Assembly (NCBI GenBank): GCA_977017645.1
Contig: OZ360240.1
Location: 6,014,001 to 6,078,000 of the forward strand
Reading direction: 5' to 3'
Origin: Torpedo marmorata
Lineage: Eukaryota
Length of the DNA: 64,000 nt
Shown here: positions 6,840 through 63,478 of the stretch, in pieces
How positions within the stretch are numbered: the stretch's first letter is position 1
How the letters are laid out: each line of letters opens with the position of its first letter
The notes under the pieces: generated by a model
What the model saw: the letters and a program-made list of their open reading frames with translations, nothing else
Database searches by the model: none
What the model was told of the DNA's origin: nothing
Made by a program: the position numbers and the translations under genes

Positions 6840-8364
6840 TTAGTGGAAAGCAGAAAAGTCAATGTTAATGCCATCTGGCTGGAGAGTGCCGAGACGGAAT
6901 ATGAGATGTTGTTCCTCCAATTTGCGGGTAGTCTGGGTGGGATAGTACATAAGGCCATGGACAGACATGTGAGTGTGGGAGTGTGACCCGGAATTGAAAT
7001 GGTTGGCTACTGGGAAGTCGCTGTTGTTGCGGACGGAGAGGAGGTGCTCAGCAAAGCGGTCTCCCAATCTACGACCGGTCTCTCCGATGTAGAGAAAGCC
7101 ACAAAGGGAGCACCTGATGCAGTAAATAAGTTCTCTGGATGTACAATTGAAGTGTAGTTTCACTTGGAAGGCCTGTTTGGGGCCCTGGACCGTGGTGAGG
7201 GGGGAGGTGTGGGCGCAGGTGTTGCACCTCCTGCGGGCACAGGGGAAGGTGCCAGGGGTGCGATGGGTGGGGAGGGATGAGTGCACGAGTGAATCGCAAA
7301 GGGAGCGGTCCCTACAGAAGGCCGAGAGGGGAGGAGAAGGAAAAATGTGTCTGGTGGTGGGATCCTGTAGTAAATGCCGGAAATTCCAGCGGATAATGTG
7401 TTGGATGCGGAGGCTGGTGGGGTGGTAGGTGAGGATGAGGGGGATTCTATGTTTGTTGTGTCTGGGGGCAGAGGGGGCCAGGGCAGATGAGCGGGAAATG
7501 GAGGAGATGCGGGTGAGGGCTGAGTTGATGGTGGTGGAGGGGAAGCCACGTTTGTGGAAAAAGGCAGACATTTCAGAAGATCTGGACTGGAAGACCTCAT
7601 CTTGGGAACAGATGCGGCGGAGACGGAGAAATTGAGAGAAGGGGATGGAATCCTTGCAGGGGACAGGGTGTGAGGAAGTGTAGTCCAGATAGTTGTGGGA
7701 GTTGGAGGGTTTGTAGTAAATGTCGGTGGAAAGCTTGTCTCCCGAGATGGAGACAGAGAGATCCAGGAAGGGGAGAGTGTTATCGGAGATGGACCAGGTG
7801 ACTTTAAGATCGGGGTGGAAGTTGAACGTGAAGTGGATGAAGTTGACAAGCTCATCACGGGTGCATGAGGCAGCCCCGATGTAGTCGTCGATATACTGGA
7901 GGAAGAGTTGAGGGGTCTTGCCTGTGTAGGCTTGCAGCATGGATTGCACCACAAAGCCCACAAACAGGCAGGCGTAGCTGGGACCCATGCGGGTACCCAT
8001 GGCTACTCCTTTGATTTGGAGGAAGTGGGATGAGTTAAAGGAGAAGTTATTGAGAGTGAGGACAAGTTCTGCCAGGTGGAGGAGGATGGTGGTAGAGGGT
8101 GACTGGTCGGGTCTTTGGTCCCGGAAGAAGCGAAGTGCTTTCAGACCTTCTGTGTGGGGGATAGAGGTATAAAGGGATTGGACATCCATAGTGAAGATGA
8201 TGCAGTTCGGTTCAGGGAATCTGGTCATTGAGGAGATGGAGGGCATGTGAGGTGTTGCGGATGTAGGTGGGGAGGGATTGGACCAGGGGAAAAAGATGGA
8301 GTCAAGGTAAGATGAAACTAGTTTGGTGGGGCAGGAGCAGGCAGAAACAATGGGTCTGCCCGGA
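6840..8364 (-). CDS. Penelope RT/GIY-YIG endonuclease ORF (partial; apparent frameshift near its 5' end)
   Basis: DVQSLYTSI, GVAMGTRMGPSYACLF, YIDD, LIYCIRC..YIGETGRRLGDRFAEH. Confidence 0.9.
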
Positions 8365-8850
8365 TGGTTGCATAACTGTCTGGTATGGAAGTGCGAATGC
8401 ACAGGACAGGAAAAGACGACAGAGAGTTGTGAACTCGGCTAACACTATCAGGGGCATCAGTCTTCACTCCATCGAGGACATCTACTAGAGGCAGTGTCTG
8501 AAGAAAGCAGCCTCTATCCTCAAGGACCCTCATCACCAAGGCCATGGCCTCTTCTCACTGCTACCATCAGGAAGGAGATATAGGAGCCTGAAGATGAATA
8601 CCCAGCGGTACAAAAACAGCTTCACCCCCTCTGCCATCAGATCTTTGAATGGACAATGAACCAGCAGTTTCTCTGCTTTTTGCACCAATTTATTTATTTT
8701 TAAATGTAATTTATAGCAATACTTGCACCTATAACACTGCCGCAAAACAACGAATTTTGTGACATAATCATGACAACAAATTCTGATTCTTTTGATTTAC
8801 AATTTGCCACAATGGTGTATTCAATTAATCTTGACAATCTTACTTAAAAG

Positions 8851-17458: not shown

Positions 17459-17710
17459 GTTTTCTCTATACCTTACACTTGCCCGGTAGGCAAACGGTCC
17501 ATCTTCTCTCACCAGAACTACTACTACTCTGGTGCCAACCACCAGGAGTTGCACAAGATCTCACACATATACTCCAGTTTTGTTTGAACAGGAACTATCA
17601 GAAGAAAGTTAAACTTGCATCTTCCCATTCATGGTAATTATTTGCCTTGTGTAACAATGTACTAATTTTACCAGTTAGATTCTGATTAGAAAAAGTATCG
17701 GATAACTAAT

Positions 17711-18536
17711 AAAAAACACAAAAGCTGGAGAACTCAGCAGGTCAAACACTGTCTTTTATGTAGCAAAGGTAGAAATACATAACCGACGTTTCGGGCTTGA
17801 GCCCTTCATCAAAGTATGAGAAAATGCCGGCAGGCGTCCGAACAAAGGAGTGAGGGGGGAAGGGGGGTGGCAAAGGCAGGAGATGATAGGTGGAGAAAAG
17901 AGGGAGGGGACAGCAGCAAAGAGGGGGAGGAGGGATGGCTGGGTGGGTGGAAAAAAAACAGGAAGGATTGGTGAGGGGGGAGGGGAAGGGAACAACAAAC
18001 AGATTTAGTGGAAAGCAGAAAAGTCAATGTTAATGCCATCTGGCTGGAGAGTGCCGAGACGGAATATGAGATGTTGTTCCTCCAATTTGCGGGTAGTCTG
18101 GGTGGGATAGTACATGAGGCCATGGACAGACATGTGAGCGTGGGAGTGTGACCCAGAATTGAAATGGTTGGCTACTGGGAGGTCGCTGTTGTTGCGGACG
18201 GAGAGGAGGTGCTCAGCAAAGTGGTCTCCCAATCTACGACCGGTCTCTCCAATGTATAGAAAGCCACAAAGGGAGCACCGGATGCAGTAGATAAGTCCTC
18301 TGGATGTACAAGTGGTGTAGTTTCACTTGGAAGGCCTGTTTGGGGCCCTGGACCGTGGTGAGGGGGGAGGTGTGGGCGCAGGTGTTGCACCTCCTGCGGG
18401 CACAGGGGAAGGTTCCGGGGGTGCGATGGGTGGGGAGGGACGAGTGCACGAGTGAATCGCGGAGGGAGCGGTCCCTACGGAAGGCCGAGAGGGGAGGAGA
18501 AGGAAAAATGTGTCTGGTAGTGGGATCCTGCAGCAA
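17711..18536 (-). mobile_element. Penelope-like element, 5'-truncated
   Basis: Near-identical to 185..1001. Confidence 0.92.
17778..17818 (-). ncRNA. Minimal hammerhead ribozyme motif, copy 3
   Basis: Identical to 254..294. Confidence 0.75.
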
Positions 18537-35614: not shown

Positions 35615-36910
35615 GTGAAACACAGAAGTCTGCAGATGCAGTGAGTGTAAAAATACAATGCTGGAGAAACTCACCAGGTCACACAGCGTACTTTATATAG
35701 CAAAGATAAAGATACCATACATAACCAACATTTCAGGCCCGAGCCCTTTATCAAGGTGCAGGTGCTCGAATAAAATGCTGGGGGAGGGGGGTGAGAAACA
35801 GGCTAGAGGGAGGAGCACAGGCCCACAGGCAAGAGGTAATAGGTGGATAAGTGAGGAAGGGGGAGGGGGTTATATCTCTTTGAATGGAGAAGGAAAGGGG
35901 TGGAGAGCAAGAGGAAAGGAAACAGAGGGAGAAGGAAGGGAGGGAGAACGGGGAGTGGTCTAGCAGAAACTGGAGGTCGATATTAATGCTATCTGGTTGG
36001 AGAGTGCCCAGATGAAATATTAAAAATTAGAATCAGAATTTATTGTCATGTCATGTGTCATGAAATTCGTTATTAGGTGTTGCTCCTCCAATTTACGGAT
36101 GGCCCTGGTTTGGCAGTGCACAAGGCCATGGACAGACATGTCAGCATGGAAGTGGGGCACAGAATTGAAATGGTTGGCTACTGGGAGATCCCAGTTATTG
36201 AAGTGGACAGAGCGAAGATGCTCAGCGAAGCGATCTCCCAGTCTGCATCCATTCTCTCCGATGTAGAGAAGGCCACAACGGGAGCTCCGGTTGCAGAAGA
36301 TGACCCCACAGATTCACAAGTAAAGTGTTGCTTCACTTGTAAGGACTGTTTGGGGCCCTGAATGATGGTGATGGAAGAGGTGTGGGTGCAAGTGTGGCAC
36401 TTCCTGCAGTCACAGGGGTAGGTGCCAAGGGGGTGATTAGTGGGAAGGGATGAGTGTACGAGGGAGTCACGGAAGGAGCGGTCCCTGCAGAAGGCGGCGA
36501 GGGGAGAGGGGAAGATGTGCCTGGTGGTGGGATCACGTTGTAGGTGACGGAAATTGCGGAGGATGGTGGGGTGATAGGTGAGGACAAGGGATATCCTGTT
36601 CTTGTTGCGTCTGGGAGCAGATGTGTGGAAAATGGAGGAGATGCGGGTACGGGCTGAATTGATGGTGGTAGAGGGGAAGTCACGTTGTTTGAAGGAGGAG
36701 GACATCTTCGAGGGTTTGGAATGGAAGACCTCATCTTGGGAACAAATGTGACGAACTCCCACAATTACATTTTCTATAAACCTACTAACTCCCACAATTA
36801 CCTCGACTACACTTCTTCACACCCTGTCCCCTGTACGGATTCTTTTCCTTTCTCTCAATTCCTCCGTCTTCATTGCATCTGCTCCCAAGATGAGGTTTAC
36901 CATTTCAGAT
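35615..36910 (-). mobile_element. Older Penelope copy with an inverted 5' segment (36752..36910 on +) and a ~55-bp Rex1 tail insertion (~36020..36070)
   Basis: ORF 36178..36795 homologous to 6840..8364; CpG-decayed hammerhead at ~35720..35757. Confidence 0.88.
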
Positions 36911-37034: not shown

Positions 37035-38192
37035 CCGTATATTTCGGCGTATAAGTCGACCAGCAGATAAGTCGACCCCCTTTTTCAGCCTCATTTTAAT
37101 GGTTTTATGGTATATCTGGCGTATAAGTCGAACCCCAAAAATCGCGATGCCTGAGATGTTGCGCATTGACCGGCGTATAAGTCGACCCCCAATTTTCAGG
37201 CTGTCTGGGCCTCCTAGCAACAACCCAAAATTTGTTACAACATCCCATTCGCCAAGTAACAAAGCTGTAAATTAAGCAAGTACCACACCGGTAAGTTAAA
37301 AAAACAGTAAAAAAAAAACCTTTGCTTCTGGCCGGGTAGATGCAGGTGCGGCGACGTCTTTCTCCTGAGCAGTAGCGGGGACTCATTCTCCTGAGCAGGA
37401 ACGTCTTTCTCCTGAGCAGTAGCGTGGAGCTCGTTCTCCCGAGCAGTAGCGGGGACTCATTCTCCCGAGCAGGAGCGGGGACGTCTTTCTCCCAAGCAGG
37501 AGCGGGGACGTCGTTCTCCCGGGCAGGTGTGGGGACTCGTTCTCCTGAGCAGGAGCGGGGAGCTCGTTCTCCCGAGCAGGAGCGGGGAGCTCGTTCTCCC
37601 GAGCAGGAGCGGGGACATCGTTCTCCCGGGCAGGTGCGGGGACTCGTTCTCCCGGGCAGGAGCGGGGAACTCGTTCTCCCGAGCAGGAGCGGGGAGCTCG
37701 TTCTCCCGAGCAGGAGCGGGGACGTCGTTCTCCCAGGTAGGAGCGGGGAGCTCATTCTCCCGAGAAGGAGCGGGGAGCTCATTCTCCCGGGTAGGAGCAG
37801 GGAGCTCATTCTCCCGAGCAGGAGCGGGGACGTCGTTCTCCCGTTTAGGAGCGGGGAGCTCGTTCTCCCGAGCAGGAGCGGGGAGCTCGTTCTCCCGAGC
37901 AGGAGCGGGGACCTCGGGCTCTACAATTGTAGAATGTCTGGGTGGTTTATGGCGGCGCCCGGCGGTGGGGAGGTGTCGTAGAGAGGCGGCGCCGGCGGTG
38001 GGGAGGCGCTTCCAGGGTCGACCTATACGCCGAATCGTGTTTTCAGGGGTCGACTTATACGCTGAATCGGCGTGAACTCGATTTTGAGCTGATTTTAAGG
38101 TCTCAAAAGTATATCTGGCGTATAAGTCGACCCCCGTTTTTTGAGACATTTTTGAGGGTTTCAAGGGTCGACTTATACGCCGAAATATACGG
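37035..38192. mobile_element. Tc2/pogo-like non-autonomous DNA element
   Basis: TIR CCGTATATTTCGGCGTATAAGTCGACC at both ends; TA duplicated relative to the empty site caattatattta at ~43628. Confidence 0.93.
37345..37912. repeat. 27-bp GC-rich minisatellite, about 20 units
   Basis: Unit GAGCAGGAGCGGGGAGCTCGTTCTCCC. Confidence 0.93.
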
Positions 38193-38931
38193 TATATTTA
38201 ACACCTAAAAAATTTAAGAAATTTAATCCGACATTATCAGGTTTATGTAATAAAGAGGAAGGTTCTTTCATACATTCTACATGGTTTTGTCCAAAAGTTT
38301 ATGATTTTTGGTTGAAAGTTAAAAAAAATTTAGATAAAGTATTTAAGATTACATTTCCAATGGATCCTATGATATTTTTGTTTGGAGATATTAGAAAACT
38401 TAGTATTAAGATGAAATTGAACATGAATCAAATAGAATTTCTGTGAATTGCTTTAGCTGTTTCAAAGAAATGTATTGCTATTACTTGGAAATCTGATCTA
38501 GATTTAGGGTTAGAAAGATGGCATGCAGAACTTCGTTCATGTATACCACTTGAAAAAATTACTTATAATTTACACAACAAATATCATTTCTTTTAAAAAA
38601 TATGGAGCCCATATATGAAAGCTGTCGGTTTAAGGATTTGAAGATCTCTGGACATCGGATCTACTGGCAAACCTGACCTCCATAATAGAATTAGTTTATA
38701 GATGTATTTTTTTTAGATTGACACTCTCCTTACTCTATCTTTTTCTTTCTTTTTTTATTTTATTTTTATTTTATTTTTTATTTTTATTTTATTAGATTAG
38801 TGGGGTTGGGAGGGTTGGGGAGGGGAGGGTGGGAGGGGGGTGAAAATGTATCACAAGTATTTTGATAATTTCATATTTTACCTTATGTATTCTGTGATTT
38901 AAAATTTTAAATAAAATATTTTTAAAAAAAG

Positions 38932-39432: not shown

Positions 39433-41897
39433 TGTCCATCCACCTGTTGCTCAAGTACTCCCGCGACTGCTGTGTTGGAGGCGTCTGTAGTGAGGGCGGT
39501 CGGGGCATCTGTCCGTGGGTGCACCAGAAGCGTGGCGTTGGCCAGGGCGTCTTTGGCCCTCTGAAACGCTTCTGATGCTTCATTGTCCCGTTCCACCTCT
39601 TTCTTTTTGCCGGCCATCAAGGCGAATAGCGGGCGCATGATGCGGGCTGCTGCCGGTATGAAACGGTGGTAAAAGTTGATCATACCAGCGAACTCCTGGA
39701 GGCCCTTCACCGTGTGTGGCTTGGTGAAGCGCCTGACAGCCTCTACCTTCTCAGGTAGTGGTGTCGTCCCGTGTTCATTAATTCTGTGGCCCAGGAAATC
39801 GATAGTCTCTAGCCCGAACTGGCATTTGACTGGGTTGATGGTCAGGCCGAAATCTCTGAGGCGGGAGCACAGCTGCCATATGTGCGCTGCATGTTCTTTG
39901 CGATTGCGGCTGGCCACCAGTATGTCATCGAGGTAGATGAATACGAAATCGAGATCCCGGCCCACCATGTCCATTATCCTCTGGAAAGTTTGAGCAGCGT
40001 TCTTTAGCCCGAACAAACCAAAGGGGGTTATGATGGCGGTTTTAGCTATGTCCTCAGGGTTGACTGGGATCTGGTGGTAGCCTCTGATGAGGTAAACCTT
40101 GGAGAAGACCCGTGCCTCCTGTAAGTTTGCGGTGAAGTCCTGTATGTGGGGCACTGGGTATCGGTCTGGCATGGTTGCCTGGTTCAGGCGCCGGTAGTCT
40201 CCGCACGGTCTCCAACCTCCTGCCGCCTTCGGAACCATGTGTAGGGGGGGGTGCCCAGGGGCTGTCGGACCTGTGCATGATCCCCAGCTCCTCCATCTTC
40301 ATGAACTCTTCTTTGTCTAAGCTCAGTTTATCGGGGGAGGCGGCGTGCCCTAGCGTGGAGGGGAGGGCCCACTGTGAGGATGTGGTGCTGCACCCCGTGT
40401 TTGGGCCCGGCGGAGGTGAACTGCGGTACTGCGATGGATGGGAATTCGGCAAGGATTCGCGTGAACTCGTTGCGGTCGGCGGTGACGGAATGGAGGTGGG
40501 GGGCAGGTAAACCGGCTTTCCCCAGGGGGAAGGACTGGAAGGTTTTGGCGTGGACTAGCCTTCACCCATTGAGATCTACCATCAGGCCATGTGCCCTGAC
40601 GAAATCCGCCCCTAGGAGCAGTCGTTCTACTGCGGCGAGTGTAAAGGACCGTGTGAACAGGCTGTTGCCGAAACAGAACGGTACGGTACACGTGCCGAAC
40701 GTCCTTATGGTGGAGCAGTTTGTTGCTCTCAAAGATGGGCAAGGCTGCTTGTTGCGGATGTCGTGTGCCGAGGAGGGAAGAACGCTGACTTCGGCTCCGG
40801 TGTCGACCAAGAACCGCCATCCAGACAGGGAATCCCACACGTTGAGCAGGCTGTCTTGTTGTCCAACCGCCATGGCCATTAACAACGGCCGGCCTTGGCG
40901 TTTCCCGGGAAAGCGCAGGGTGGGCGGCATCGGCGGGCCTCCGCACCCCATCACTGATGGTAGAAACAGCACTGCTCACCCGCAGAGTCCGTTTGCCTGT
41001 CGCGTGTGGCCGGTGGCCTTGTCGCTCGTTGTATGTGGGGCTTGGCGACGTGCTCCACCATGATGTCGGAGTGTCTCTGACTTCCAGAGCACGTTTGCCC
41101 AGGCTGCCACCTTCCTCGGGTCGCTGAAATCTTCGTCCACCAGCAGCAATCGGATATCCTCCGCCAATAGCTCTAAGAAAATCTGCTCGAAGAGCAGGCA
41201 AGGTGTATGGCCGTCGGCGAGCGCTAACATCTCGCCCATGAGGACGGATGGGGCCCTGTCCTCCTATCCGTCCATGTGCAACAATCGGGTCGCGCGCTTA
41301 CGCTTCAAGAGCCCGAAGGTGCGGGTTAGTAGCTCTTTAATGGCCTCATACTTCCCTTGCTCTGGTGGGTGCCGGAGGAAATCGACGATTCTGGCCACTG
41401 TGTCTTGATCCAGCGAGCTCACCACGTAGTAGTAGCGCGTGGCGTCGGAGGAGATCTGTCGAATCTGGAACTGAGCCTCGGCTTGCTCGAACCAGACCTG
41501 TGGCTGTGTTGTCCAGAAGGTCGGAGGCTTCAGGGCGACCGCGTGGATGCTTGCCTGGTCCATCGTCTTCGGGTCCAAAAACGCCGTTCAGACCCGTCGG
41601 GGACACCAATGTAGCGCGCTGCGGATGCTGCGTCGAAGAAACACCACTACATACGAGGTAAGCTCAAATAAGACTGATTTATTGAGGCTCTGGCTCTGCT
41701 TTTATAGGGCCAGCTACCCGGAGAGACCCGCCTCTTCCGGCCGAGATGATGTCACGGGCCGGCTGCCGATTGGTCGGTTTTCCCGCCGGTGCTGGAGCTG
41801 ATGCAAGAAGGCCATTTAGTCCGTGGCCTTGATGCAATCGCCGAGTTCAACCGCCATTTTGTGCAGCGGGTTGCCGATCGGCTCGCGGGCCGCTACA
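39433..41897 (-). mobile_element. Gypsy LTR retrotransposon 2 (5' LTR, gag, PR, RT; 3' part lost), inserted in the BEL RT
   Basis: LTR 41610..41897 (TGTAGCG...CGCTACA); PBS TGGTGTCCCCGACG (tRNA-Trp type, one mismatch); gag LKPPTFW..WFEQAEAQF; FLVDTGAE; [11 protein letters not shown]; YLDD. Confidence 0.93.
41610..41897 (-). repeat. 5' LTR of Gypsy-2
   Basis: 7-bp terminal IR; TATAAAA (~41700..41706) and AATAAA (~41678..41683) on the minus strand. Confidence 0.88.
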
Positions 41898-43026
41898 GAA
41901 CTGTCATTCTGTATTCTACCATGTTCTGACTGTAATCTCCATCAGGCCACCAAAGGAATCGTAACAAGTCACGGTCTTCTTTCGGTACTTTCAGCTGGTG
42001 GAACATTGCTTCAATGTCTGCAGTGATGACAAGAGGTTCTTTACTGAATCTAGTTAAGACTCCGATCAACGTACTGGTCAAGTCTGTAAGAACTGAGAGT
42101 TTAATGAAACTCCCCGAAAGGTTGCTACACAGTCAAACACCACTCGAAGTTTTTTCTTTTGTGGATGCAAAACCCCATGGTGTGGTAAATACCATTTTTT
42201 GCCATCACTACGTTCCAAGATATCATCTGGTACTTTCTCTGCATAACCTTTAAATATCATGTCAGACACGCAGTTGGTGTAGTCTGAATGAAAGGAAGAA
42301 TCTTTCTTGAATCTTCTCTTTAAATTCAGTGTACGTTGTTCGACAACGCTCCTATTATCAGGCATGCAAAATTCCCTTTTCTTTAAAGGTAATCCAATGT
42401 AATAATGATCATTAACTATCTTGGCAGATTTTGACACCAAATCCAAGAACTGCTGGTCTTCCTTTGAAGGTTCTTGGGCGTCCCTGAGGCACTCAAGAAA
42501 GTCAGTCTTGAACTGCTGCTCCCACAGCTCTTCAAGTTTAACAATCAATATCTTGTTGACACTTATAGCCGACTGGTCCTGATCCTCATTTCTTCCTCCT
42601 AATGGTCCATTAATCGTCCAACCAAGCATAGTTTTGACAGCGTAAGGTCCATCTCCCACACTCCTTATCATATCTAGTGGTTCCAGAGCTTTTGGTACAT
42701 CTGTACAAATCAGCAACTCTAGCTCAGAGTTGATTTTAGGTAAACGAACATTTTTCAAATGCATCCACGGTTCAATGTCGTTTTGATGTGGGATGTTTCC
42801 TTTATGCACAGGCATAGTTTTCTGAGTTTATACGCCTGGGAGTTCACAAAAATCGTTACTATCCAGCTTAGCGACCTCTAAGCCAAAAACAACGCTGGTT
42901 TCAATGATTTTAACTTGACCTATAGTTCTCAATAGAATTTTTGACTTTCTTCCTTGAAGATTAAGCTTATTCATTAGCCCCACAGTGCAAAATGACGCAG
43001 TGCTACCTGGGTCAAGAAATGCATAA

Positions 43027-44391
43027 CTGAAGAAGTTATTTATAAATGGGATTCTAAATTAATATCAACAAGAAAGAAAAATTCTCCTATTTTTAAACAT
43101 TTGTTAGAAATATGGAATAAGACGGATAAGGAAATAGGGGGAAGAACAATGATTTCTCCAAGGATGCCTTTATATCAAAATGGACTTATTCCATTTACTA
43201 TTAATAATCAATTATTTAAAATTTGGTTTCAAAAAGGAATTAAGAAAATTAATGACTGTCTTGAAGCTGGGAAATTCATTACTTTTCAAAGAATGAAGGA
43301 TAAATTTAATATATTAGATAATACACTTTTTGCTTATTATCAAATTAGAGCATTTCTGATTGAGAAATTAGGTTATAGTTTGATTTTACCAAGACAGAAT
43401 GAATTAGAATTATTAGATACTAAAGAAGATGTAAATAAATTTATTTCTCAAATGTATAAATTGTTTCAGAGGAAAACTTCTAAAGTAGGAATTCATAAAT
43501 CAAAATTAAAATGGGAATTAGATTTGAATGTAACAATAGATGAGAATCACTGGAAAGAATTATGTAAATTAAGTATGACGAAGATTATTAATGTTAGATA
43601 TAGATTAGTACAATATAATTTTTTTCATCAATTATATTTAACACCTAAAAAACTAAAGAAATTTAATCCGACATTATCAGGTTTATGTTTTAGATGTAAT
43701 AAAGAAGAGGTTCTTTTGTACATTCTACATGGTTTTGTCCAAAAGTTTATGATTTTTGGTTGAAAGTTAAAAAATTTTTAGATAAAGTATTTAAGATTAC
43801 ATTTCCAATGGATCCTATGATATTTTTGTTCGGAGATATTAGAAAATTTAGTATTAAGATGAAATTAAATATGTATCAAATAGAATTTTTGCAAATTGCT
43901 TTAGCTGTTTCAAAGAAATGCATTTCTATTACTTGGAAATCTGATTTAGATCTAGGATTAGAAAGATGGCATGCAGAACTTCGTTCGTGTATACCACTTG
44001 AAAAAATTACTTATAATTTACGTAATAAATACAATTTTTTCTTAAAAATTTGGAGCCCATATATGAAAGTTGTTGGTTTAAGAATTTGAAGACCTCTGGG
44101 TATCGGATCTTCTAGCATACCTGACCTCCACAATAGAATTAGTTTATAGATGTATGTTTTTTTAGATTGGCATCCTCCTTACTCTATCTTTTTCTTTCTT
44201 TTTTTTCTTTCTCTATTTTTATTTTATATATTTTTTTATATATTTTTTTATTTTTATTAGATTAGTGGGGTTGGGAGGGTTGGGGAGGGGAGGGTGGGTG
44301 AAAATGTATCACAAATATTTTGATAATTTCATATTTTATTTTATGTATTTTGTGATTTAAAATTTTAAATAAAATATATTAAAAAAAAAAA
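43027..44391 (+). mobile_element. L1-like LINE, 5'-truncated, inserted in the BEL protease
   Basis: 13-bp TSD AAGAAATGCATAA (43014..43026, 44392..44404); poly(A); CFRC knuckle region. Confidence 0.95.
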
Positions 44392-45865
44392 AAGAAATGC
44401 ATAAGTATGCACTATTGCACTCCCTTTCTTGGCCTTGACTTGCACAGGTACTATTAAAAGTTTGCAGATGTCCTCACTGGCCCCAGTAAGACCATTTGTC
44501 TGTACCGAGGCTACAGCACTGTTTTCATCTGCTTCTTTTCTTGCTGTTTGTTCCTTTTCCGTATTCTTCTATTTCTGGAAGAGCATTTTGGGATGCTTTA
44601 GACTGCATATGTCGCAGCTGAGTCGCTTTTTGCAGTTCTTGCTGATGTGTCCTTTACACATACAGCCAAAACATACTCCATTTTCCTTCAGAAAAGCAAT
44701 TTTCTCACTATGCGTTTTCTTTTCCAACTGTGCACAGATTTCCAAAGCATGTATATCTTTGCAGAACAAACATTTCTTCACAGCAAGCAAACTCTCCTTT
44801 TCCTTAGTTTCTTTATCAATTTTCTTATCTGCAACAATAACAGTGGTGGCAAATATACTTTTTTTCAATTTTGGATGAGGATGTGATTTGGACCTCTCAA
44901 CATCTTTGCTTACTGTCTGAGTGTCTTTGATATTTCCATACACTGGATTTGTGACAATGTCCACTTGCCCTTCAATGAACTCCACCAAATCCTTAAAAGT
45001 AGCCCTTTGATTGTATTTTTTCTGGTATTCAACAACTAAACCTCCATAGTTCTCTCATCCGGTAAGGTAATTTATTTAAAATGATTTGCATATTAGTAGA
45101 CATATCAAGCTCTTGTAGATAGTCGATCTCAGCCATGGCATTGCAACATCCTCTTAGAAAGAGGGCGTAAGCTTGTAGAACTTTCATGTCATCCGGTTTT
45201 ATTGACGACCATGAAAGAGCCTTCTGTATATAAGCTGGAGCAATTTTATGCTTGTTGCCAAAATGCTTCTTTAGTAAAGACTTAGCCCTTTTCAATCCTT
45301 CGTTCGGGGGCATATGATGGCAACTCCTTACGTTCTTGTGGTTGTCCGCTCGTGAACTGTTCCAAATAATAGACAATCCTCTGAGTTTTGGCTATTACTT
45401 TCAATACTGTGTTCAAAGTTTCTCATGAACGCTTGGAACTGAAGTGGATCACCATTAAAAACTTGAATCTCTCTCTTGGGCAGAGAAGAGAGAGACTGTA
45501 ACTGGATTAACGATGCAGCCATTTCATCTTGCCTTCTCATGCCTGAGCGTACATTGCTTTGTTCACCCTGATTTCTGATACCTGACTGGATCATCAAGTA
45601 ATCTGTACCGAGAGATTGGATTTGGCTCATATTTCTGTCTGCTGTGGTCATTGTTGGGGTTTGAGGATTGGCATTACCATGCCTTAACATGGTTTGTTCT
45701 GGTACATGCACGTCTTGTAACCATGGCACTGGCTCTGCCTTAGTATTAAATATTTTCTTTTTCTGTTGTTCTTCCTCAAAACATGACTCCATAACATTAG
45801 ACGCTTTAGATAAATTACTTCGAACATCAGATCCCTTTGAGGTTGTTAGTAACTTCATTTTAGCC

Positions 45866-46579
45866 TTAACAACAGTAAGGTTTTTCTTCCAACTCTATTT
45901 CCTCTCTTTTCCTCCTTAGCTGCTCCTCTTCCCTCCCTAGCTGCTCCTCCTGCAGCTCCTTTTCCATCCGTAGCTGCTCCCTTCTCTGCTCCTCTTCCCT
46001 CCGTAGCTGCTCCTCTTGTCTCCGTAGCTGCTCCCTTTTTCTCCTTAGCTGCTCCTCCTGCTCTTCCAAGGCAAATTTATTCTGAAGCAATTCTTGTTCT
46101 GCAACAAGAGCGACAACATCAGCCTGAACCTTTAAACGTGCAGATGCAGTACTTGAAGTACAGGAAACTCTGGAGCTTGCTCGAGAAGAACTTTCTTTGC
46201 TTCTCCTGCTTCCAGCATTTGACGCACTATCACTTGGTTGTATATCATCCTGAATGTCAGATGTTGCCTTAATATCTGGCTTTGTCTCCATTTTGATTTG
46301 CCAATCCTCCACCTCACCATCTTGTGACATACCTTCAGACATTTCCATGTGACTGATCTTAGATTCTGTTGATGTTTTTTGCAGAAATTCTGTGGAGTTT
46401 GTATTCCCAGCAGCCAAAACCTTCTCTGTTTCTTTTGCCTCTTTCAGTCTTGTAAAGAGAACAGCTTTGGCTCCACTTGTATCTAAGTGCCGCCATTGCA
46501 ATTCATCTCTAAGTTCCGTGACCTTCATCTCCTTGATACGTTGCTCCTCAGGGGCAACAGCTTCAGCGGCGGCTGCCAT
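45866..46579 (-). pseudogene. BEL Gag N-terminus: SAP domain, Ser-rich region and coiled coil
   Basis: IKEMKVTELRDELQWRHLDTSGAKAVLFTRLKEA fits the SAP pattern; PSDSAS..SS and an E/R/Q coil are typical of BEL gag. Confidence 0.8.
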
Positions 46580-46876
46580 TTTATCCTTATCTTTATCCTT
46601 ATCCATCCAGCTGATCGCCATTATCAGGCACCAAGCTTGCACAACAATAACTCCAAAACCAAAAACAGTCCCCAAAGGACAAGCGGCAGTTACTCCAAAC
46701 TGTGTTCCAAACTCGCAATCAAAACACAGAAGGAATCCACGTAAGGCTTACCGCTTCCGATGGCCTTGATGCTCCTGTTGACAATCGTGCATCCATGAGT
46801 TCAAAATGCTCTAAACAGAGCCCAATCGATCCAATCCAAATTCCAAATCCAATTTCCAACTTTCTATTGACTTAAT

Positions 46877-47376
46877 TGTAGCGACTACTTTCCATTATAG
46901 TCGCTTGGATGCTAAAATAATCTTGTAATCTATGACTCGTTCCAACAAATTTGTACTAAAGTTAAGTTGAGTTTTCCAAAGTTTATTAAACGATATTAAA
47001 CATTGTTAACGTTATTATAGGTTGCTAAACATTGTTACAAGTTGCTAAACATTGTTACAAGTTGCTAAACATTGTTACAAGTTGCTAAACTTTGTTACAA
47101 GTAGCTAAACATTGTTACAAGTTGCTAAACTTTGTTACAAGTAGCTAAACATTGTTACAAGTTGCTAAACAGTCAATAGAAAATGTTGCAAGAAGCTTTA
47201 ACATTCATTTCGTAGAACAAAAGAAAGAAACTAAAAATCTTATCTCCTAAGCAAGCAGAGAAAACTAGTTATGACCCTGAAGCAAAGGTGTTGCGAGGAG
47301 ACAGCATAAAAATAAGTTAAACAAAAAAAATAACCACAGACAAGTGGCAAGCATGAAACACATTTTAACCCCTACA
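46877..47376 (-). repeat. 5' LTR of the BEL element
   Basis: TGTAG...CTACA terminal IR; AATAAA on minus at 46982..46987. The partner LTR is lost, so the boundaries are inferred. Confidence 0.75.
47021..47170. repeat. 20-bp tandem repeat (GTTGCTAAACATTGTTACAA, ~7.5 copies) inside the BEL LTR
   Basis: Seen directly. Confidence 0.95.
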
Positions 47377-62277: not shown

Positions 62278-63246
62278 CTAGTTTAAAGTCTCCTGAGTAA
62301 CCCTAGCAAATGTCCTCGCCAGAATCCTGGTCCCCCTGGGGTTCAAATGCAACCCGTCCTTTCTGTACAGGTCACACCTACCCCAGAAATGGTCCCAGTG
62401 ATCCACAAACTTGAATCCCTGCCCCTTGCTCCACCCCTTCAGCCACTCATTCATCCTCCACCTCATTCTATTCCTGCTCTCAGTGTCGCGTGGCACCGGC
62501 AGTAATCCCGAGATTACTCCCTTTGCGGTCCTTCTTTTTAACTCTCTACCTAACTCCCTATACTCACTTTTTAGGACCTCTTCTCCTTTCCTCCCTATGT
62601 CGTTGGTACCTACAGGTACCACGACCTCTGTCTCATCTCCCTCCCCCTTTAGGATGTCCTGGACTCGAGCAGCAATATCCCGGACCCTGGCACCAGGGAG
62701 GCAAACCACCATCCCGTTCTCCTTGCTCTGTCCACAGAATTCCCTATCTGTACTCCTGACTATTGAGTCCCCTATGACTATTGCCCTCCTCTTCCTTTCC
62801 CTACCCTTCTTCTGAGCCTCAGAGGCCGACCCAGTGCCTGAGGCACAGCAACTGACACTTTCCCCTGCTTGGCTGTCTCCCCCAACAGTACCCAAGGAGG
62901 AGTACCTGTTGTTGAGGGTTACAGCCACAGGGGTCCTCTCTACCACCTTACTCTTCCTCTTATCTCCCCAGACCGTGACCCACCTGTCCTCCTCCCGTGG
63001 CCTTGGTGTGACCACCTGGCTGTAACTTCTATCTATGATTATCTCGCTCTCCCTGTCATCGAGGTCATCGAGCTGCAGTTCCAGTTCCCTAACACGGTCC
63101 CTGAGGAGCTGCAGCTCAGCACACCTGGCGCAGATATGGACGTCCGGGAGGCTAGAAGACTCCATGACCTCCCACATCCAGCACTGAGAACAGAAAACTG
63201 CTGTCACACTCATCCCTACTCTCTCCCCTTCCTCAAATAAGTACAA
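62278..63246 (-). CDS. CR1 ORF1p (zinc finger, coiled coil, SGNH/GDSL esterase)
   Basis: CSQC..CARC, LRDRVRELELQL, VIGDSIVR, VGTND, DGLHLN. Confidence 0.9.
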   Translation of the reverse strand: MYLFEEGERVGMSVTAVFCSQCWMWEVMESSSLPDVHICARCAELQLLRDRVRELELQLDDLDDRESEIIIDRSYSQVVTPRPREEDRWVTVWGDKRKSKVVERTPVAVTLNNRYSSLGTVGGDSQAGESVSCCASGTGSASEAQKKGRERKRRAIVIGDSIVRSTDREFCGQSKENGMVVCLPGARVRDIAARVQDILKGEGDETEVVVPVGTNDIGRKGEEVLKSEYRELGRELKRRTAKGVISGLLPVPRDTESRNRMRWRMNEWLKGWSKGQGFKFVDHWDHFWGRCDLYRKDGLHLNPRGTRILARTFARVTQETLN

Positions 63247-63478
63247 AGGAATAAGGAAGCAATTAAACAGTCTTACCTTAAATTGACAAGCTTGACCTCA
63301 GCCTCTGCTCGCCAAAGCCTCTCGAGCCAAAGCCTCGGTGCCCCACTCCTTCCCTATGCCACTTACACACTGGGCCGCTCCCTCAACTTCCCTTCCTGTT
63401 ATAGGTCACTGTTAATTTACTCAAATACCCAATTTCTTACTACTACTGATCACCACTTAACCTAGCCCTTTGTCCTCC

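Follow-up and report, generated by a model that had tools for sequence, protein, structure and literature searches.

The Gag protein of a BEL/Pao retrotransposon family of Torpedo marmorata opens with a SAP domain that was almost certainly captured, to judge from sequence, from the host gene SLTM. The account that we favour as a whole, a single capture of SLTM mRNA with the SAP kept as a likely, predicted chromatin tether, is probable. One copy of the element lies in the stretch of 64,000 nucleotides of contig OZ360240.1 that was analysed (the window, to which all coordinates refer).

The window copy

On the minus strand, positions 46433-46579 encode a SAP domain, with which the Gag of this broken copy of a BEL/Pao element begins. 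The sequence-only reading of this DNA had placed the SAP peptide in frame with the serine-rich and coiled-coil part of Gag, and this is confirmed: both share the ORF 45866-46747 (minus strand), with the peptide starting from an ATG at 46579. A SAP hit, whose absence that reading had named as grounds for its dismissal, was found: residues 15-48 match Pfam PF02037 with 38.9 bits (E 6.1e-10; curated cut-off 23.9 bits). The predicted structure agrees with the SAP pattern too. An AlphaFold model, made from an alignment of 22 rows, has three helices (mean pLDDT 81.5) and its nearest folds are the solved SAP domains of 3'hExo, hnRNPUL1 (1zrj), DEK, Tho1 and Hcc-1, matched with probabilities of 0.97-1.00 and rmsd of 0.5-1.1 Å, with no row at E<=0.001. 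A viral fold search returned generic SAPs only, none at E<=0.001, every match in the ESM Atlas stayed below 0.9, and a word-index search of long proteins gave 89 candidates, none of which scored. HMMER found 139 matches among 1.84 billion representatives, mostly proteins with multiple SAPs, which were of use as a source of cellular SAPs only. The position equivalent to SAFB2 S54 is alanine in the window copy; its odd tryptophan stands at a CGG/TGG codon (20 TGG and 7 CGG of 28), consistent with CpG decay.

The copy lies on the minus strand and starts with a 5' LTR (TG..CA; 46877..47376) common to the LTR pairs of the copies L031, L032, L035 and L044; tandem copies of a 20-nt unit (at about 46968-47187) lengthen this LTR and form a longer array than in other copies. 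The element leader (46619..46876, minus strand) is, by alignment, present in all four subfamilies compared and unrelated to the DNA upstream of host SLTM. It is followed by a decayed remnant of the captured SLTM 5'UTR (46580..46618, minus strand), which was placed by local DNA alignment to the host locus (L113) and ends in the host start context TAAAATGGC. Next comes the captured coding exon 1 of SLTM (46439..46579, minus strand), an alanine-rich leader plus the SAP core, which is now the Gag start (Pfam match 46436-46537); over the core, 67/99 nucleotides and 16/33 amino acids are identical to host SLTM. Sixteen nucleotides from the start of SLTM exon 2 (46423..46438, minus strand; 12/16 match here by reading the sequence) lead into a linker (46270..46422, minus strand). 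In the copies nearest to SLTM, 15 residues of this linker are left over from the ancestral BEL N-terminal domain; in the window copy this remnant is more decayed. The serine-rich and Glu/Gln coiled-coil part of Gag (45869..46269, minus strand) is homologous to fish BEL Gags, and the rest of gag (44392..45868, minus strand), with the DUF1759 capsid region and Cys/His knuckles, is broken into three frames. The 3' fragment of a LINE with poly(A) (43027..44391, plus strand), recognised from a gap in the copy alignments, a zf-RVT trace and the sequence itself, is inserted into the element; the protease and the start of pol (41898..43026, minus strand) end at a Gypsy LTR (41611-41897). The remaining RT, RNase H and integrase parts of this copy were not found within the window. 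With its gag frame changes, LINE insertion and Gypsy insertion, the window copy is dead.

Elsewhere in the window, downstream of a Gypsy RT, about 20 copies of a 27-nt unit (37366-37948) lie in open frames (37105-38197) that have no Pfam match. An ORF at 62281-63297 (minus strand) has a GDSL/SGNH esterase domain; such domains occur in some LINE ORF1 proteins. A fragment at 6843-8438 (minus strand) has a Penelope-like RT and a GIY-YIG domain, and more copies of it lie near 430-1000, 17700-18500 and 36000-36550.

The SAP domain is a feature of the family

A DNA search of the genome with the window element gave 2,284 first-look candidates, of which 40 were scored, and the SAP is encoded in all 30 family loci fetched; it is thus family-wide and the possibility that it exists only in this copy is refuted. 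Family copies have Peptidase_A17, DUF1759, DUF5641 and integrase, with PR-RT-RH-IN in one frame, and TG..CA LTRs of about 360-400 nt; target duplications of 5 bp flank three of the four copies inspected. The element is, from these copies, a BEL/Pao retrotransposon, of which the window copy holds gag to the start of pol.

When the genome was searched with PF02037 (29,045 first-look candidates), 29 of the best 30 loci were subfamilies of the SAP-bearing element and one was what we take to be an hnRNPU-like host exon. SAP matches in this genome are therefore overwhelmingly element copies (29 of these best 30) and will mislead annotation. The SAP was also present in 18/20 of the fetched regions with an A17 match and at the head of the frame in each of the 11 elements fetched whose open frames span 2,018-2,134 amino acids (Pfam match in 3/3 tested). 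The LTRs of these 11 elements are 97-100% alike, indicating that recently mobile elements use the SAP.

The copies L213-L228 and L230 belong to a young subfamily whose LTRs are almost identical and in which gag and pol form one open frame, so this lineage was moving until very recently. In its SAP, the Ala/Thr leader is longer and the loop has changed shape. The LTRs of L138, one of the copies nearest to SLTM, are 96% identical and those of the window-type copies L031-L044 89-94%, which suggests that the host-like, slow lineage was inserting as late as the diverged one or later. L139 and L133 are second, more diverged family copies, nested inside or beside copies nearest to SLTM. In the run X1, short contigs resemble the window element; these are not evidence of expression.

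The donor is SLTM and the template was spliced mRNA

A search pattern for the SLTM/SAFB motif had six matches in the genome, all of them element copies with an almost SLTM-like N-terminus. One such copy retrieved three teleost proteins, two of them named SAFB-like transcription modulator. With the help of these proteins, the host SLTM gene (exon 1 and exon 2) was located on contig C68 and a paralogue on contig C54; best matches of a named SLTM (P0140) identify the C68 gene as the SLTM orthologue, and the RRM exon of P0140 matches the C68 gene with 80% versus 62% for the C54 paralogue.

Host exon 1 is matched at E<=0.001 by 60 of 89 element loci (three loci are duplicates). In the copies nearest to SLTM, similarity to the host extends from 38 nt upstream of the ATG as far as the splice donor, with about 78-90% DNA identity, and it starts at the same base in almost all of them. 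The 16 nt that follow exon 1 in these copies are host exon 2 (exact in 18/26, median 16/16; median 6 against the host intron), and the next 16 nt do not match the host (median 5). Window-type copies retain a median of 13/16 exon-2 bases, against 8 for the intron. A contig of X1 joins host SLTM exons 1 and 2 across 1,184 nt (GT..AG); it also reaches upstream of the capture breakpoint in host SLTM, and our guess is that X1 is RNA. As exon 2 sequence directly follows exon 1 and the 1,184-nt intron is skipped, the captured piece was derived from spliced SLTM mRNA.

The window copy itself aligns to SLTM exon 1 with a score of 108, while the maximum of 500 shuffles was 33. SAFB was considered as donor and is out-scored (23). 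The best PDB sequence match of the window SAP is hnRNPUL1, which the DNA rejects as donor, the hnRNPU-like exon scoring 46. In a tree of SAP DNA (99 nt, 19 rows, ACIN1 not included), the element copies branch off stepwise from host SLTM, and both SAFB and the hnRNPU-like exon fall outside (92/95). The sequence-only reading had noted a resemblance to SLTM including the alanine-rich leader and had suggested capture of the 5' end of an SAFB-family mRNA. Both statements are borne out by the host DNA, as leader, SAP and the end of the 5'UTR all match SLTM, and with the exon junction the donor can be narrowed to spliced SLTM.

Generic SAP convergence or a transfer from element to host might be argued from hnRNPUL1, not an SAFB protein, being the best PDB sequence match, yet either is extremely improbable and already refuted by the identity of non-coding 5'UTR and by the exon-exon junction; moreover, teleosts have SLTM with the same N-terminus, yet their BELs are without SAP.

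A single capture replaced an older N-terminal domain

Identity to the host SAP core (33 residues; rows with frame breaks skipped) is graded: 26-32 residues in the copies nearest to SLTM, 24-26 and 20-24 in two further groups and 14-18 in the window type. In a tree of the Gag core (a quick search, with 32/41 loci having enough columns), all 32 SAP copies form one clade (SH-aLRT 97) inside SAP-less fish BELs, with the copies nearest to SLTM basal and on the shortest stems. An alignment of four subfamilies has the same leader and host start context TAAAATGGC in each.

A search with the Gag core identified 81 relatives among 2,495 candidates, and neither precomputed Pfam annotation nor our own profile found a SAP in any of these 81; grouping with SAPs already widespread in BEL gags, the other outcome that had been considered, is thereby refuted. 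The statement that BEL Gags more often carry a PHD finger or nothing at this position needs correction here: related fish BEL Gags open with an N-terminal domain of about 150 residues. In 39 of the 81 relatives, 100 or more residues precede the shared motif; most of these 39 have an N-terminal domain in common, and the SAP-bearing Gag retains a 15-residue remnant of it. Shuffled sequences reached the score of the remnant in 0/500 cases against P0143 and in 1/500 against P0170; it is not significant in 7 of the 11 relatives tested. As the related Gags open with this domain, gain of the SAP was a replacement. Together, these sequence comparisons show a single origin of the capture, in which most of the ancestral N-terminal domain was replaced. 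The fish domain itself (P0143, residues 10-120) belongs to no Pfam family and has no Atlas match at 0.9. A SAP-less parent element was not found in this genome with one query, the P0143 N-domain.

We propose that an ancestral BEL/Pao element recombined once with spliced SLTM mRNA. It would have gained the end of the SLTM 5'UTR, the start codon and the SAP as a new Gag N-terminus, and lost most of the old domain. Retroelements are known to acquire sequence when reverse transcription switches template onto a co-packaged mRNA, and because the intron is missing we infer that this was probably the route here.

Retention of the SAP domain

Net of change within subfamilies, dN/dS between the host and the window type amounts to 0.38 (dN<dS in 295/300 bootstraps), against 0.17-0.54 for the other subfamilies; these low values overstate constraint, as dS is inflated by the composition drift from host to element (GC3 from 0.58 to 0.37-0.45, CpG from 6 to about 2). 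When host DNA was changed randomly by the same 32 nt, the observed SAP score was reached in 0/1000 simulations with the generic profile and in 5-9/1000 with an SLTM/SAFB profile; high scores are favoured here, as similarity or SAP score had guided the choice of copies and matches of the window SAP were the source of the generic profile. The Pfam SAP score of a derived copy (L073) is 52 bits, that of the host 45.3.

Among 105 copies, the G-x-K, R-L and E-L positions hardly vary. SAFB2 K53 corresponds, by the spacing in the host paralogue, to a lysine that 104/105 copies retain (87/88 older and 17/17 young ones), and K53 is described as decisive for dsDNA binding in a passage of PMC9958909. In the young copies, the equivalent of SAFB2 R45 and a conserved loop leucine are changed in 17/17; loss of R45 unfolds the SAFB2 SAP domain, according to the same passage (PMC9958909). 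Between two open-frame copies, in one pairwise comparison, amino acid identity is 0.54 for the SAP and 0.57 for the linker. Retention in frame and of the SAP-defining residues is shown at the level of sequence, and it is quite probably a real retention at the level of the protein.

Possible functions of the captured domain

The reading that we favour with modest confidence, by analogy, is that the SAP gives Gag a predicted weak, multivalent tether to dsDNA or chromatin: assembled Gag would carry many SAPs, each binding dsDNA weakly, and these would anchor the particle or its cDNA to chromatin, which is likely why the SAP was kept. The analogy is with foamy virus Gag and with the SAFB2 SAP, for which a passage of PMC9958909 describes micromolar binding to dsDNA only, not to ssDNA. 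Targeting of AT-rich DNA, which had also been suggested, finds no support: insertion flanks of 200 nt are not enriched in AT (0.609 for 37 BEL versus 0.608 for 30 Gypsy insertions), and over 20 nt the BEL flanks (0.609) are lower in AT than those of Gypsy (0.700, p 0.01).

The same capture may have been useful for another reason: a Gag that had lost its own start could have been rescued by the start context of SLTM together with a soluble, folded N-terminal cap, the SAP being held loosely for fold and frame and not for DNA binding. The invariance of TAAAATGGC across four subfamilies and host, the SAP identity that is not above that of the linker, the loss of two structural SAP residues in the young subfamily and the absence of an AT bias would all fit. 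We consider this unlikely, given that G-x-K, R-L and E-L are nearly invariant over the 105 copies and that derived subfamilies match or beat the host on SAP profiles (L073, as above), unlike the drift simulations. Binding of RNA instead of chromatin, in packaging, export or protection of the element transcript, is improbable. Gag is known to act on genomic RNA, and RNA-associated SAPs (3'hExo with the histone mRNA stem-loop, Tho1/Hcc-1) are among the fold neighbours; however, Gag has its own Cys/His knuckles and the SAFB2 SAP bound dsDNA only in the passage cited (PMC9958909).

The SAP could also be a decoy that blunts transposon repression by SAFB and SLTM, competing for chromatin sites or partners. 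SAFB1, SAFB2 and SLTM suppress L1 and other elements in mammals and flies, as stated in a passage of PMC10901741, the SAP may dimerise (a passage of PMC9958909), and 29 of the best 30 PF02037 loci are element copies. Yet repression as described works via RNA binding, and the most expanded subfamilies drift from SLTM-specific residues that a mimic should keep; such a decoy is very improbable. A bolder version of the tether reading, in which the element took the chromatin-binding domain of one of the transposon repressors of its host, exchanged its own Gag N-terminal domain for it, tuned it into a capsid tether and reached thousands of copies thanks to this swap, is doubtful; if it were true, all steps from near-identical capture to retuned domain would still be present within one genome.

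Comparison with known systems

The closest known elements are fish BEL/Pao (Belpaoviridae), for example P0143 and P0170, with a Gag core up to 72% identical to the SAP-bearing element and with the same DUF1759, A17, DUF5641 and single gag-pol frame. Their Gag opens with the non-Pfam domain of about 150 residues, whereas the SAP-bearing element has a remnant of it with the SLTM SAP in front. With SLTM, a member of the SAFB family, the element has in common the end of the 5'UTR, the start codon, exon 1 and 16 nt of exon 2; it took no RRM or ER-rich region, and its SAP diverges along the element lineage.

SAP accessory domains are also present in Zisupton DNA transposons and in the Penelope-like element Chlamys-1_pPol, but these belong to other classes, have the SAP outside Gag and no host donor is named in the relevant passage of PMC8557442. 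The chromatin-binding signal of foamy virus Gag is our working analogy for a tether carried by Gag; there, as a passage of PMC7828637 describes, the signal is a short viral motif and tethering is shown, whereas here it is a captured host domain and tethering is proposed. Plant LTR elements carry pieces of host mRNA, like the SAP-bearing element (PMC3726574, 10.1101/777037); in contrast to that gene-fragment capture, the SLTM piece is joined to Gag in one reading frame and has persisted through a radiation of subfamilies.

Searches of the main texts of freely readable articles brought up no BEL Gag described as containing SAP or SLTM. SAP domains in transposons and capture of host mRNA by LTR elements are already known; an in-frame, traceable capture of SLTM in a BEL Gag appears, from these searches, to be new. 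The donor is from a family whose members repress transposons both in mammals and in flies (a passage of PMC10901741). Most accessory chromatin domains of transposons, such as SAP, PHD and chromodomain, are of an age at which their donors can no longer be traced. Here one can still read the donor gene and its spliced junction, the two breakpoints, the domain that was replaced and a graded series of descendants, so that the retuning of a captured host domain and its gain for an LTR element become directly testable.
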